A program made the position numbers and the translations under genes. Below are positions 59,422 to 62,660 of a stretch of DNA of 64,000 nt, one piece after another (positions within the stretch are counted from its first letter, which is position 1; each line of letters starts with the position of its first letter). The DNA is from an uncultured Vampirovibrio sp. (GTDB lineage: Bacteria > Cyanobacteriota > Vampirovibrionia > Gastranaerophilales > Gastranaerophilaceae), in the NCBI GenBank assembly GCA_910577515.1, contig CAJTLW010000006.1:46799-110798 (forward strand), written 5' to 3'. Under the pieces are notes generated by a model. That model did not search any database. It was not told where the DNA came from and saw only the letters and a program-made list of their open reading frames with translations.

Positions 59422-60246
59422 TCAATATTCTTTTTTGTTCACAGAACCGTCAGAACCCGTCACAGTCGAGGAAGTTTTCTTTCCGGCTTCATTATAAAAT
59501 TCTTCAGTTTTTCTGCCGCTTGTATCGTTTTGCATTATTTTTGAATGTACTCTTGTACCAGCTTCATCATAATACAAAGTTTTTATAGTTTGTCCATTAA
59601 TATATTCAGTTTTTGCCCAATACATACCAGCCTTTGTAAGTCCTTTTTCTTTTGGTATAACATCAACCGTTGCATCTGTTTCGGGTTCCACAGGAGCTTG
59701 TGGCTCTTTTATGGGTGCAGTAGTTCCAATTGGTTTTGGCGTTTCTACAGGTGCAGTCTCTTTATTAAGTGCCTCATCTTTTTGTGGTATCGGCTGTACC
59801 TCAATAGGAGCAGTTGTAGTTTCAGGTACAGGAGCTTCTTCAGCTTTTTTTACAAGCACACCTGTTGAATCATATTGGTTTCCTGTCACATCATAACGGT
59901 TCAATTCTCTGCCATCTTTATCAAACACCATAATAAAAATTTCATCAGATGCACCTATACCCTCTCTTTTTACAGGCACATTATATCTTCCGTTTGCATC
60001 AATAGTTGCCTTGCCTGCAGCTTTAAGTATGCTTTTTTCGCCATTTGGAGCAGTCCATACCTTTTCATAGTTTCGAAAATTTGCTTCCCATTTCTCTGTC
60101 ACGTTATCATTTATGGTGTAGCCATCAGCTTTATATGTGGTTTTTGTAGTCACACCATCTGTTGTTTCTAAACTATGCGTGTTTTTAATTATGCCATTTG
60201 TGTCCATTGTTGTGAAAATAGATTGCGAAGTGGAAGATGCAGACAC
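59422..60246 (-). CDS. Hypothetical protein with central Pro/Thr/Glu-rich linker
   Basis: 274 aa, GTG start. Two Lys/Thr/Gly-rich beta-like halves are joined by PVPETTTAPIEVQPIPQ...KEPQAPVEPE. Confidence 0.5.
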   Translation of the reverse strand: MSASSTSQSIFTTMDTNGIIKNTHSLETTDGVTTKTTYKADGYTINDNVTEKWEANFRNYEKVWTAPNGEKSILKAAGKATIDANGRYNVPVKREGIGASDEIFIMVFDKDGRELNRYDVTGNQYDSTGVLVKKAEEAPVPETTTAPIEVQPIPQKDEALNKETAPVETPKPIGTTAPIKEPQAPVEPETDATVDVIPKEKGLTKAGMYWAKTEYINGQTIKTLYYDEAGTRVHSKIMQNDTSGRKTEEFYNEAGKKTSSTVTGSDGSVNKKEY

Positions 60247-60304
60247 TTTATCTTCTTTTTACCCATAGAGCCTAAAACCTTTAAAGCAATACTGAAAAAA
60301 CCGG

Positions 60305-60552
60305 TTAAAAACCTTCTGGTTCAAATTCTTCAATATTTTCATCCAAAAGCTCATTATTCGACACATTATTGTCATCTGTATCAAATAAACCACCACTATT
60401 GTTTACTTTTTTGTATCATTATCCCCACTAAATAAATCGGTTGATTTTTCAGCTCTATTTGCCTTGTTTCCTTCTGATGATTTTTCAGCAGGTGCATTTT
60501 TTGTTTCAATACTCTTTAATAAGTCCGATAAAAGTGTAGTTAATCCTTTCAC
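60305..60552 (-). CDS. Small ORF split by a stop right after an A_AAA_AAG heptamer (possible -1 frameshift or pseudogene)
   Basis: GTG at 60552 with SD-like AAGGAA. The 49 codons end ...GAT ACA AAA AAG TAA (stop at 60403-60405). The -1 frame stays open for 33 more codons to TAA at 60305-60307. Confidence 0.3.
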
Positions 60553-60665
60553 TTTGTTTCCTTTCTAAAGTAATATTCTATATAAATGAGTCAACGGCTC
60601 TTTTTATTATTTTACTGAGAATTTGAAAAAACCAAAGTTACAAAACTTTACTAAAAATCTAAAAT

Positions 60666-61529
60666 TTACAATAATTTTTTTAAAATAAAATAAATAAATT
60701 TATGAAAAATATTCGGGTTTTTATATTGTATTACAGGGCGTTTCCAGTTCCCATTCAAAATTATCCCGACATATTCTTTTTTATAATTTTCAAATTTTAT
60801 ATTTCTAAACCTTGCAAAATGATATTCCACCCTTGAATGAAATGTTTTAAAGAAAGGCTCCACTGCCATTTCAGGCACAAGACCGCATTTTTGAAACCAC
60901 GCATTATACCAGGTAAATTCAAGCGGTGAAATTTTTATTAAATCCTTATAAGACAGGTCTTTTGGCGCCATAAAATCATTTTTTAAAGATTTCATTACTT
61001 TTGAATTTATAACCTGCATCCCCTGACATGTGCGAAACCGCCTATCTTCAAGCCCAACAGCCATAAATATTTTTTCAATCCACTCTTTCCTTTTTGCGGT
61101 AAATCTTCTGTAAAATTTTTCACAGAAAAGTTCTTTTTCCATAACAAGCACTGTATAAGGGGTTTTGGAGTCAGCCATAAAATCTTTTATATAAAAATCT
61201 CTGATAAACTGCACATCAGAATCCAAACAAAGATAATTTTCCGCATATCCCGCTTCAAAAAAGGCTAATTTGCAAATCTCTTGATTAATATATCCAATCG
61301 AATATCTTGAATATTTTTCGGTTTCAAAGTATTGTCCGGCAAAGCTTTCATCCGTTATCAATTTAACATTGCCGCCATCAAATTCCTTAAACAGTTCAAA
61401 ATCCGCTTCAGGAACGCTTACAAAAAATTTTATATTATCTTTATTAAATTTTTCAAAAGACGCCAAAAGCCTTTTAAAGCTTTTAAAATCTTTGTTATAG
61501 GTTTTGCAATATAAAGAGAAGTTTTCCAC
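60666..61529 (-). CDS. Putative GT-A-like glycosyltransferase (DxD: CLDSD)
   Basis: 287 aa, GTG start at 61529. The N-terminal beta-alpha pattern (FFVSVPEADFELF) and LCLDSDVQF resemble nucleotide-sugar transferases. This assignment is tentative. Confidence 0.45.
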   Translation of the reverse strand: MENFSLYCKTYNKDFKSFKRLLASFEKFNKDNIKFFVSVPEADFELFKEFDGGNVKLITDESFAGQYFETEKYSRYSIGYINQEICKLAFFEAGYAENYLCLDSDVQFIRDFYIKDFMADSKTPYTVLVMEKELFCEKFYRRFTAKRKEWIEKIFMAVGLEDRRFRTCQGMQVINSKVMKSLKNDFMAPKDLSYKDLIKISPLEFTWYNAWFQKCGLVPEMAVEPFFKTFHSRVEYHFARFRNIKFENYKKEYVGIILNGNWKRPVIQYKNPNIFHKFIYFILKKLL

Positions 61530-61534
61530 TTTTA

Positions 61535-61545
61535 CCCCCCCCCCC
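61535..61545 (-). repeat. Homopolymeric G11 (C11 on + strand) tract 5 nt upstream of the GTG start
   Basis: The + strand reads tttaCCCCCCCCCCCgg. On the gene strand it reads GGGGGGGGGGG TAAAA GTG. Confidence 0.95.
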
Positions 61546-61641
61546 GGTTAAAACCGGAGTTTGAGGTAAATTATTAATAAATTTCATAAAACCATTTTAT
61601 AACAAAAAATTTTATTGCGCGGTTTTTAAACAGCAAACCTA

Positions 61642-61670
61642 TTGACAATAATAATTGTTTCTATTACAAT
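61642..61670 (+). promoter_or_regulatory. Near-consensus sigma-70 promoter (TTGACA-17 nt-TACAAT)
   Basis: TTGACA at 61642-61647 and TACAAT at 61665-61670, upstream of the small ORF 61724..61921. Confidence 0.6.
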
Positions 61671-61723
61671 TGTAGGGCTGAACTTGGCAAAAGTACAGCA
61701 AAACTAAGGAACAGGGAGGTTTT

Positions 61724-61921
61724 ATGATACAACCTATCACCTCACATCAAGCTATAGCAGGCGCTACCAGAGTAACAAACCCTGTAACTTTCGGTAACAG
61801 AAGTCAACTTGCCTATCAAAACCAAATGAACCGTTTTGAAAAAGGCGAAAAACTTGATATTAACTGCTGCGGCACGAGAGAATACAGTCTTTGCGGGCAA
61901 AAACTTAATTATCTTGCCTAA
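61724..61921 (+). CDS. Hypothetical 65-aa protein
   Basis: SD GGGAGG lies 5 nt before the ATG. The ORF has its own promoter and terminator. Confidence 0.55.
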   Translation: MIQPITSHQAIAGATRVTNPVTFGNRSQLAYQNQMNRFEKGEKLDINCCGTREYSLCGQKLNYLA

Positions 61922-61946
61922 AAAGTACTGTGTTTAAAGGAAATTC

Positions 61947-61983
61947 GGCGTTTTGTAATTTTTAATTGCAAGGCGCCTTTTTT
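61947..61983 (+). terminator. Intrinsic terminator
   Basis: 12-bp stem GGCGTTTTGTAA / TTGCAAGGCGCC (three G.U pairs), a 7-nt loop and a T6 run. Confidence 0.7.
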
Positions 61984-62000
61984 AATGCTACATTTTACTT

Positions 62001-62660
62001 ATGTTTACAGGCATTATTCAACATATAGGAAGAATTTCCGATATAAAAACTTCAACATCGGGAAAAACAATCAGCGTATCTGTTGATATTAAAGAGTTTC
62101 CAGCATTTAATAGTGTTAAAACAGGCGATTCTATAGCACTAAACGGGGTATGCACAACAGTAATATCCTTATCTGATAACGTTTTTACTGTAAATTTAAT
62201 GAATGAAAGCTTGAAACGCAGTAATTTAGATGCTTTAGAACGTAAAAACCCTGTAAACCTTGAATTGGCAATGAAAGCAGATGGCAGATTTGACGGACAT
62301 ATAGTACAGGGGCATATTGATACCGTTGGTAAAATCCAAAAGATAGCCACAGACGGATTTTCAAAGGTTTTTTCAATAGAGGCTGATACAAAGTATATTG
62401 TTGAAAAGGGGTCAATCACCCTTAACGGCGTAAGTTTAACCGTATCAAAATCTGAAAACCTGTATTTTGAGGTTAGTTTAATCCCGCACACGCTTCAAAA
62501 TACAACTTTTCAATTTTTGAAAGAGGGCGATTTTTTAAACATAGAATATGATATTCTGGCAAAATATATTGAAAAATTTACACTTTTTAAAGATAATAAT
62601 TTTACAGGCAGTTCTTCAAAAAAAATTGATGAGAAATTTTTGCTTGAAAATGGGTTTTAA
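62001..62660 (+). CDS. ribE: Riboflavin synthase (alpha chain)
   Basis: MFTGIIQHIGRI start and duplicated lumazine-binding repeats (GDSIALNGVCTTV / GSITLNGVSLTV). Confidence 0.92.
   Translation: MFTGIIQHIGRISDIKTSTSGKTISVSVDIKEFPAFNSVKTGDSIALNGVCTTVISLSDNVFTVNLMNESLKRSNLDALERKNPVNLELAMKADGRFDGHIVQGHIDTVGKIQKIATDGFSKVFSIEADTKYIVEKGSITLNGVSLTVSKSENLYFEVSLIPHTLQNTTFQFLKEGDFLNIEYDILAKYIEKFTLFKDNNFTGSSSKKIDEKFLLENGF

Follow-up and report, generated by a model that had tools for sequence, protein, structure and literature searches.

The window, a stretch of 64,000 nucleotides from an uncultured Vampirovibrio sp., contains on its minus strand a gene for a 287-aa DUF6492 protein (60666-61529, GTG start at 61529), which Pfam, its homologues, and a structural model point to as a putative nucleotide-sugar-dependent transferase. 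On one side, the gene is neighbored by a divergent ORF of 65 codons and then by ribE and ribBA; on the other side, two small ORFs precede der and plsY. The gene is placed outside any glycan cluster. The 65-codon ORF upstream of ribE was considered as an FMN riboswitch and rejected, as it went undetected in an Rfam scan of 60300-62300 that gave no riboswitch or leader RNA and only sub-threshold snoRNA noise.

The match to Pfam DUF6492 (PF20102) reaches 40 bits against a gathering cut-off of 22.9 (E 3.3e-10) and covers residues 9-126 only. A total of 154 homologues was found, most of them 281-295 aa long, and PF20102 is present in most of the 120 that were listed. The enzyme carries a DxD motif (D103-S-D105): across an alignment of 50 homologues, D103 never varies, and conservation of S104 and D105 is 90% or higher. 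The AlphaFold2 model built on a 50-sequence alignment (mean pLDDT 95.8, pTM 0.92) takes on a Rossmann-like α/β/α GT-A fold. Searching the PDB with Foldseek gave 249 structural matches with E<=1e-3. The 50 listed consist of GT-A enzymes and Stealth phosphotransferases, with a TM of ~0.45-0.55 at 9-14% identity. They comprise the Stealth proteins CpsY (8j2n) and GNPTAB, the GT6 enzymes BoGT6a and human GTA/GTB, and the GT8-type enzymes LgtC (1ss9), glycogenin, XXYLT1, and LARGE1.

The original prediction of a GT-A-like, DxD-containing ORF is borne out by the Pfam family, the conserved D103/S104/D105, and the resemblance of the model to GT-A transferases; at the fold level, the model supports the assignment as a GT-A-like DxD transferase. 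Classification by HMM, also foreseen in that prediction, succeeded in part: Pfam places the ORF in DUF6492, whereas an NCBIfam scan of the 287-aa protein gave no match and no characterized family was reached at the sequence level. A profile search of PDB sequences with the enzyme likewise yielded 0 matches at E<=10. Membership of CAZy GT6, GT8, or Stealth (CpsY/GNPTAB) is not supported by these three results. Literature searches found no paper on DUF6492. The gene appears to be transcribed, as low-depth contigs from four runs that were guessed as RNA by the tool cover the gene body (60649-61459), with DNA carry-over being possible in such runs; the interval with the tract and the 5′ end (61460-61600) has no coverage in these contigs.

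The G11 tract and its reading frames

Sequence reading of the minus strand gives ...ATGAAATTTATTAATAATTTACCTCAAACTCCGGTTTTAACC-G11-TAAAA-GTGGAAAAC..., in which the G11 homopolymer occupies 61535-61545 and the GTG (61529-61527) follows 5 nt 3′ of it. The full minus-strand layout is ATG(61587)-AAATTTATTAATAATTTACCTCAAACTCCGGTTTTAACC-G11(61545-61535)-TAAAA-GTG(61529)-GAAAACTTC... and comprises two further features. The ATG at 61587 opens a uORF of 30 codons (61495-61587, minus strand) that runs through the tract and, in the G11 state, ends at the TAA at 61497-61495, 35 nt inside the enzyme ORF. A second TAA (61532-61534, minus strand) abuts the 3′ end of the tract and halts the ATG frame at tract lengths of 3n (e.g., G12), 2 nt before the GTG. 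The tract doubles as the Gly-run codons of a long isoform and as a G-rich Shine-Dalgarno (SD)-like element of the GTG. Both the spacing of 5 nt between the tract and the GTG and the upstream ATG reading through the tract had been noticed before; the coordinates were reproduced on the minus strand, and the 30-aa uORF is contained in the ORF list.

Homopolymers were counted over the whole assembly (1.93 Mb, 16 contigs, 34.2% GC). G/C runs of length 5, 6, 7, and 8 number 754, 72, 5, and 4, respectively, a drop of ~10-fold per extra base, and runs of length 9-10 are absent from the 1.93-Mb assembly. Beyond this gap stand four outliers with lengths of 11, 12, 13, and 13, where extrapolation would expect <0.01 runs of at least 11. 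The G11 tract, first noticed as the lone long G/C homopolymer, is the only G/C run of at least 7 on its 131-kb contig. Simple sequence repeat (SSR) contingency loci are characterized by an uninterrupted poly-G/C repeat of ~8 or more that is statistically unexpected for the genome, and G11 is such a repeat in both its length and its unexpectedness.

The other three outliers lie elsewhere in the assembly. A C13 tract at ~codons 22-26 of an unknown 279-aa protein is currently in frame, another C13 forms the last codons of an HNH-domain protein, and a G12 tract in a prophage tail fibre marks the point where the fibre N-domain meets the collar domain. The ORF of the 279-aa protein shares the design of ATG, ~20-codon leader, tract, and protein body. 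All three are also contig-break points in further samples, and the tail-fibre tract is a G13 in one mouse-gut run (X10). Of 37 related genomes, 29 contain G/C runs of at least 10, frequently with several such sites each.

The consequences of tract length for the reading frame were followed by replacing the tract in silico by G8 to G17. With G7, G10, G13, and G16, the ATG at 61587 is fused to the enzyme, and the products of the latter three are 306, 307, and 308 aa long. G9, G12, and G15 lead to a stop at the TAA directly 3′ of the tract, and a peptide of 29-32 aa terminating within the enzyme ORF results from G8, G11, G14, and G17. The window, with its G11 tract, is in a nonfused state. The predicted frame table (short peptide for G11, fusion for G7, G10, and G13, TAA for G12) was reproduced in every entry.

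The predicted fusion products with an N-terminal extension also exist as gene calls. The 90% cluster of the closest homologue holds proteins of 306 aa (TGGGVKVE), 307 aa (TGGGGVKVE), and 308 aa (TGGEGGVKVE), next to proteins of 287 aa (GTG start) and 266 aa (a later TTG start). In the 306-308-aa calls, which come from independent assemblies with G10, G13, and 16-nt alleles, the gene callers chose the ATG at 61587 as the start. The N-terminus of the long form reads MKFINNLPQTPVLTGGG(G)VK, compared to (M)ENFSLYCK for the form starting at the GTG.

Tract length among strains and samples

Tract lengths were read from assembled contigs, both from conspecific assemblies and from Logan contigs, so that heterogeneity within a sample is visible only indirectly. 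The locus was found as Logan contigs in 31 public runs, and the contigs of 16 mouse-gut runs were examined at the tract; runs with an organism label are mouse gut metagenomes, and the remaining runs have a coded label or none. Invariance of the tract, against which the original prediction had been staked, was not found in either source. Among conspecifics the lengths are 10, 11, 12, 13, 14, and 17, plus an interrupted G7AG8. They are distributed as G10 (L018), G11 (the window), G12 (L020, L021, L022, and L024), G13 (L015, L016, and L017), G14 (L025 and L026), G17 (L023, at a poor contig end), and G7AG8 (L019). The Logan contigs harbor G11 (X1 and X2), G12 (X4, X6, X7, and X10), and G13 (X3, X5, X8/X9, X14, and X20), with zero further differences over the 301 nt around the tract.

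The sequence surrounding the tract hardly changes. In the main haplotype, the 55 nt before and the 40 nt after the tract are identical, and the window differs from the G7AG8 strain by 1 SNP in the flanks. Unusually clean natural evidence is provided by L018 (G10), L020 (G12), and L015 (G13), which show 0 SNPs and 0 gaps in ~3.8 kb of flanking sequence (1.4-1.5 kb upstream, 2.36 kb downstream). Since the flanks are identical while the tract length differs, the mutation rate of the tract exceeds that of the surrounding sequence by orders of magnitude. Lengths also differ within single studies (11, 11, and 13 in P1; 12, 13, and 12 in P2; 13, 12, and 13 in P5). All three frames are common among the samples and none is visibly favored. 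At the genotype level, the candidacy for phase variation is thus supported by a tract that varies in length between otherwise identical strains.

The comparison among relatives, which had been proposed along with it, gave a divided result: the length varies in conspecific assemblies, but the tract is absent from the orthologues of other species. No equivalent tract was found in the orthologues of 60 relatives and 120 family members, and the cross-species comparison is therefore uninformative on function.

Origin of the tract and the proposed switch

The orthologues of other species start with an ATG that is positioned 2-7 codons before a conserved NF..(Y/F)CK motif, at approximately the position of the GTG in the window. 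A G-rich gggcgggcaagATG without a tract is seen in the closest sister species. One conspecific strain, L027, lacks the tract; over 3.9 kb it shares 97.8% identity with the window, and the differences are concentrated in the 5′ and 3′ portions of the gene. Where the other strains have the tract, L027 has CCAGGGAGGGAGGGGG-AAA-ATGGAAAAC, which provides an SD and start of the form GGGAGGGAGGGGG-AAA-ATG at the ancestral start. Three differences set all tract alleles apart from this allele: G stands at both A positions of the SD, an additional T forms the TAA, and the ATG start has become GTG. Given this tract-less conspecific allele, the tract had its origin, as read from the aligned alleles, in the G-rich ribosome-binding site that served the ancestral start. 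The frame of the upstream ATG is present in L027 as well but out of frame, and a leader ORF that overlaps the enzyme start exists in this tract-less allele, too. The G14 strains L025 and L026 combine an upstream region of the window type and the tract with a coding sequence of the L027 type, a mosaic which indicates that the region recombines.

The 19-20-aa N-terminal extension is, by these comparisons, dispensable and lies outside the conserved enzyme, because the orthologues of other species and the tract-less allele start near or at the GTG position. When the leader codons of the two alleles are compared, 5 of 14 differ nonsynonymously and 2 synonymously. The nonsynonymous differences give no sign of purifying selection on the leader peptide.

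The signals for initiation are unevenly developed at the two starts. A −10-like box TGTTATAAAAT, identified by sequence reading only (61594-61604, minus strand), ends 6-8 nt upstream of the ATG at 61587, so that the mRNA may have only a very short leader or none at all, i.e., be leaderless. A scan with the sigma-70 consensus gave no −35/−10 pair for the gene, and sequence reading revealed no recognizable SD before this ATG. SD motifs precede 37% of the long ORFs in this genome compared to 5% in the background; a regular-expression search of the assembly for the 16S rRNA 3′ end (anti-SD) gave no match. For the mRNA around the tract, a hairpin CUCCGGU-UUUA-ACCGGGG is predicted (61534-61568, minus strand; MFE −25.4 kcal/mol, z −1.96), which is extended by UACCUC:GGGGGU pairing and sets the anti-SD-like CCUC/CUCC against the G tract. 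The probability of the SD window being unpaired is predicted as 0.20-0.34 for G10-G14 and as 0.23 in L027. The stem of the tract-less allele contains one compensatory change (CCGG/CCGG to CCUG/CAGG).

Taken together, the G tract is probably a slipped-strand contingency locus that sets the access of ribosomes from the ATG at 61587 to the GT-A transferase. Slippage in the tract would determine, heritably and reversibly, how these ribosomes reach the DUF6492 enzyme, and two routes can be distinguished. In the first route, translation would be initiated at the ATG at 61587, and the enzyme would be reached only with tracts of 3n+1. In the second route, initiation would take place at the GTG at 61529, with the 3′-terminal part of the G run serving as SD at a fixed spacing of 5 nt. 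With 3n+1 tracts (10, 13, and 16), the ATG frame would enter the enzyme and yield the long isoform of 306-308 aa, the ON state. With 3n tracts (12), the ATG frame would halt at the TAA that lies 2 nt short of the ancestral start, and with 3n+2 tracts (11, 14, and 17), it would produce a 30-32-aa peptide ending 35 nt inside the gene; in both classes, the enzyme would be low or OFF. The nonfused classes would obtain enzyme only from the weak internal GTG, whose SD is predicted to be paired with the upstream CCUC/CUCC.

A weak GTG together with a sequestered SD would render the second route poor and favors a real expression switch. At the ancestral start, every tract allele has a GTG and the tract-less allele an ATG, and a weakened internal start is what a switch operated from an upstream ATG would need. 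The gene class, with its GT-A fold, DxD motif, and LgtC-type GT8 structural neighbors, is typical of phase-variable loci. The ATG at 61587 would then presumably be the start in use, the nonfused states would lower the enzyme output, perhaps as a strict ON/OFF control, and the phenotype would be expected to be an altered glycan, either on the surface or secreted. The start at the GTG complicates this reading. The family N-terminus falls at the GTG, with most homologues being 286-291 aa long, and the tract-less allele has an SD and ATG there, so that the GTG, with the G run 5 nt upstream, is on its sequence context a plausible start in every tract state and could bypass the switch.

The main alternative, which follows from this complication, is that translation of the enzyme starts at the GTG whatever the tract length. 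The tract would then be a hypermutable, nearly neutral SD that drifted from GGGAGGGAGGGGG to pure G, the spacing between the GTG and the 3′ end of the tract would stay constant, and the in-frame fusion would be an accident of gene calling. This is rather unlikely, even though it agrees with the tract-less conspecific allele that has an SD and ATG at the same site, the G-rich gggcgggcaagATG of the sister species, the match of the family N-terminus to the GTG, the ATG at 61587 without SD, the unconserved leader peptide, and the frequency of all three frames in nature. It is at odds with the fact that all tract alleles carry both the ATG-to-GTG change and the added T that makes the TAA, with the predicted sequestration of the SD, and with an upstream frame that, if translated, crosses the GTG in two of the three states. 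The presence of four long G runs in the genome, all in or abutting coding frames, also fits maintained tracts better than drift.

A contingency locus born from a ribosome-binding site, in which the tract then acts as a three-state translational dimmer through the SD-sequestering hairpin, which ribosomes coming from the upstream ATG would have to open, is an unlikely though conceivable reading of the same alleles. Two A-to-G changes would have made the pure G run, the start would have been weakened to GTG, and the TAA would have been created. Regardless of such a history, a graded output over the three tract classes, with the long isoform from 3n+1, an intermediate level from 3n, and the lowest level from 3n+2, is a doubtful proposition. 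With 3n tracts, the leader stop 2 nt before the GTG would open the SD hairpin and allow termination-reinitiation to the short isoform, and with 3n+2 tracts, the leader ORF would run 35 nt past the GTG and occlude it. The stop-to-start geometry speaks for such a gradation, as do the predicted hairpin, which is kept in the tract-less allele through one compensatory pair, and the leader ORF that overlaps the start in that allele too. The argument is one of sequence and thermodynamic prediction, however, in which the z of the hairpin is just −1.96 and a single covarying pair is weak evidence.

If the differences in length were an artefact of sequencing or assembly, such as polymerase stutter or two-colour poly-G trouble, the true tract would be fixed. 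Homopolymers of at least 11 are indeed error-prone, and an Illumina consensus at G11 or longer may be off by one at low depth. Many contigs are only 4-15x deep and broken at the tract, and the sequence beside the G17 of L023 is obviously corrupted. An artefact is nevertheless very improbable, because the range of 10-14 goes beyond plus or minus one and particular lengths are shared by several independent samples (G13 in L015-17; G12 in L020-22 and L024). In addition, the deepest sample (X10, 34x) shows a clean G12, and three different assembly sources agree that the lengths differ. Contigs end exactly in the tract in 6 of the 16 runs (X3, X11, X12, X13, X14, and X18). Such breaks are suggestive of mixed lengths inside samples, yet they are also expected from sequencing trouble. 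A switch at the RNA level, in which the polymerase or ribosome slips on the G run so that all genotypes make some in-frame product and the DNA length tunes its share, is scarcely credible, since variation at the DNA level is enough to explain the data, even if long homopolymers can in general cause transcriptional slippage.

Comparison with known contingency loci

Slippage switches in surface-glycan genes are textbook knowledge for Campylobacter, Neisseria, Haemophilus, and Helicobacter. The mechanism proposed here, slippage in the G tract upstream of the DUF6492 transferase, is itself the known poly-G contingency switch. Less ordinary are the visible origin from an SD, the ancestral allele that is still extant, and the architecture with two starts. 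The coexisting tract-less allele offers a rare view of a switch arising from an ordinary ribosome-binding site. Literature searches on phase variation or homopolymeric tracts in Gastranaerophilales or Melainabacteria found nothing of relevance. In a lineage where G/C runs of at least 10 are widespread, the locus contributes a target of the glycosyltransferase type, and uncultured gut commensals may in this way vary a glycan stochastically, which is of relevance to phage and host immune pressure. For annotation, it follows that 266-aa, 287-aa, or “frameshifted” calls of the DUF6492 gene should not be taken as pseudogenes or errors.

In Neisseria, the LOS glycosyltransferase genes lgtA, lgtC, lgtD, and lgtG contain poly-G/C tracts. 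The two systems share a homopolymer in the 5′ coding part of a gene for a GT-A retaining-type transferase (putative here), with the likeness to LgtC (GT8) being at the fold level only. The DUF6492 enzyme differs in that it has no sequence-level relation to such enzymes (0 PDB sequence matches).

In Haemophilus influenzae, lic1 and lic2 reportedly carry CAAT repeats with alternative upstream starts and graded expression (Weiser et al. 1989). The repeat is likewise located between the upstream start codon(s) and the enzyme body, and the frames may give different levels beyond on and off, a graded output that is hypothesized for the present gene. The repeat of lic1 and lic2 is a tetranucleotide, in contrast to the homopolymer here. 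The comparison with these genes also draws on a survey of SSRs (PMC2651432).

In Bifidobacterium breve, the sortase-dependent pili are switched ON and OFF by replication slippage in an intragenic G tract, the length plasticity of which was shown in mice by Maximum Depth Sequencing (PMC9187656). Both organisms are gut commensals with a variable G tract. The switch in B. breve concerns a pilus gene and is experimentally proven, whereas the present locus is a candidate transferase switch.

In Campylobacter jejuni, poly-G/C contingency loci are found in the transferase genes for capsule, LOS, and flagellin glycosylation (PMC3025981, PMC3068675, PMC539331). The resemblance to the present locus is threefold: an AT-rich genome contains a handful of outlier long G/C runs, the tract is located at the 5′ end of a gene for a sugar-modifying enzyme (putative here), and its length differs in near-identical isolates with a shift of the frame. 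The differences are that the host here is an uncultured gut commensal of the Gastranaerophilales/Melainabacteria, that its genome has only four tracts, and that the gene is isolated between the rib genes and der instead of lying in a glycan cluster. Moreover, the tract in the present locus doubles as the SD of an internal start.

Mosaic structure of the transferase gene

The gene encoding the 287-aa DUF6492 transferase (60666-61529, minus strand) is mosaic within the species, as illustrated by the alleles at the conspecific loci L025 and L026, at L027 and in the window. Differences from L027, which has no poly-G tract, are concentrated in two stretches, one of about 400 nt around the transferase start and the other of about 200 nt towards the 3′ end, and the flanks of the gene are nearly identical to those of L027. 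In L025, an upstream region and tract of the window type are joined to a coding allele of the L027 type. This hybrid arrangement indicates recombination at the transferase locus.

Genes flanking the transferase

On the upstream side, a 65-codon ORF (MIQPITSHQAIAGATRV...; 61724-61921, plus strand) that is kept in all conspecific loci lies before ribE. It has a predicted promoter at 61642-61670 (11/12 match to sigma-70) and a strong Shine-Dalgarno sequence (GGGAGG), and a terminator-like hairpin at 61947-61977 separates it from ribE, just ahead of the latter. The ORF has no match in Pfam, NCBIfam or Rfam. An FMN riboswitch was looked for in this region ahead of ribE, and none was detected.

Downstream of the transferase, a small ORF (60403-60552, minus strand) comes in two lengths, set by an A6/A7 run difference near 60406: the window, L019 and L025 have a 49-aa version, and L015, L018, L020 and L027 one of 121 aa. 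A second short-homopolymer difference (T5/T6, minus strand) is located near ~60306. The two differences reflect either strain variation in short homopolymers or decay of the small ORF. Another gene on this side of the transferase (59422-60246, minus strand) encodes a protein of 261-274 aa with a linker rich in Pro, Thr and Glu (…APVPETTTAPIEVQPIPQ…PKPIGTTAPIKEPQAPVEPE…) and a Big-domain match that stays below threshold. A role as glycosylation substrate or surface protein is conceivable, though purely speculative.

Long G/C tracts in the genome and its relatives

A search of 37 genomes (36 relatives, G001-G022 and G037-G050, plus the genome that holds the window) found runs of G or C of at least 10 nt in 29 of them, frequently at numerous separate sites per genome (e.g., at least eight each in G006 and G007). 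Such runs are less frequent in other families of the order.

The window's own genome carries other long tracts. A C13 tract at C1:318448-318460 (gene strand; locus L036) spans approximately codons 22-26 of a 279-aa protein (MTEIKFFPQASLSGKITNSTSFTPPPPNS...) that has no match in Pfam or PHROG, and is presently in frame. Contigs from the mouse-gut runs X1, X4 and X5 stop at this tract, and it is read through at unchanged length in X10. A 373-aa protein with an HNH-endonuclease domain ends in a further C13 tract (C1:178459-178471; locus L037), which supplies its final four codons (PPPP-stop) and directly precedes a hairpin that the convergent gene shares. A length change there would alter only the C-terminal tail of the protein; contigs break at the tract in all four runs examined.

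Outside the window, a G12 tract (gene strand; C5:83078-83089, L038:679-690) marks the exact boundary between a 368-aa prophage tail-fibre N-terminal ORF (Phage_tail_fib) and a 186-aa Collar-domain ORF, which has its own ATG and reads through the tract in a different frame. With G11 or G14, the two ORFs would be fused. The tract is G13 in X10, and contigs of other runs end at it. The locus may encode a phase-variable tip of the phage receptor-binding apparatus.
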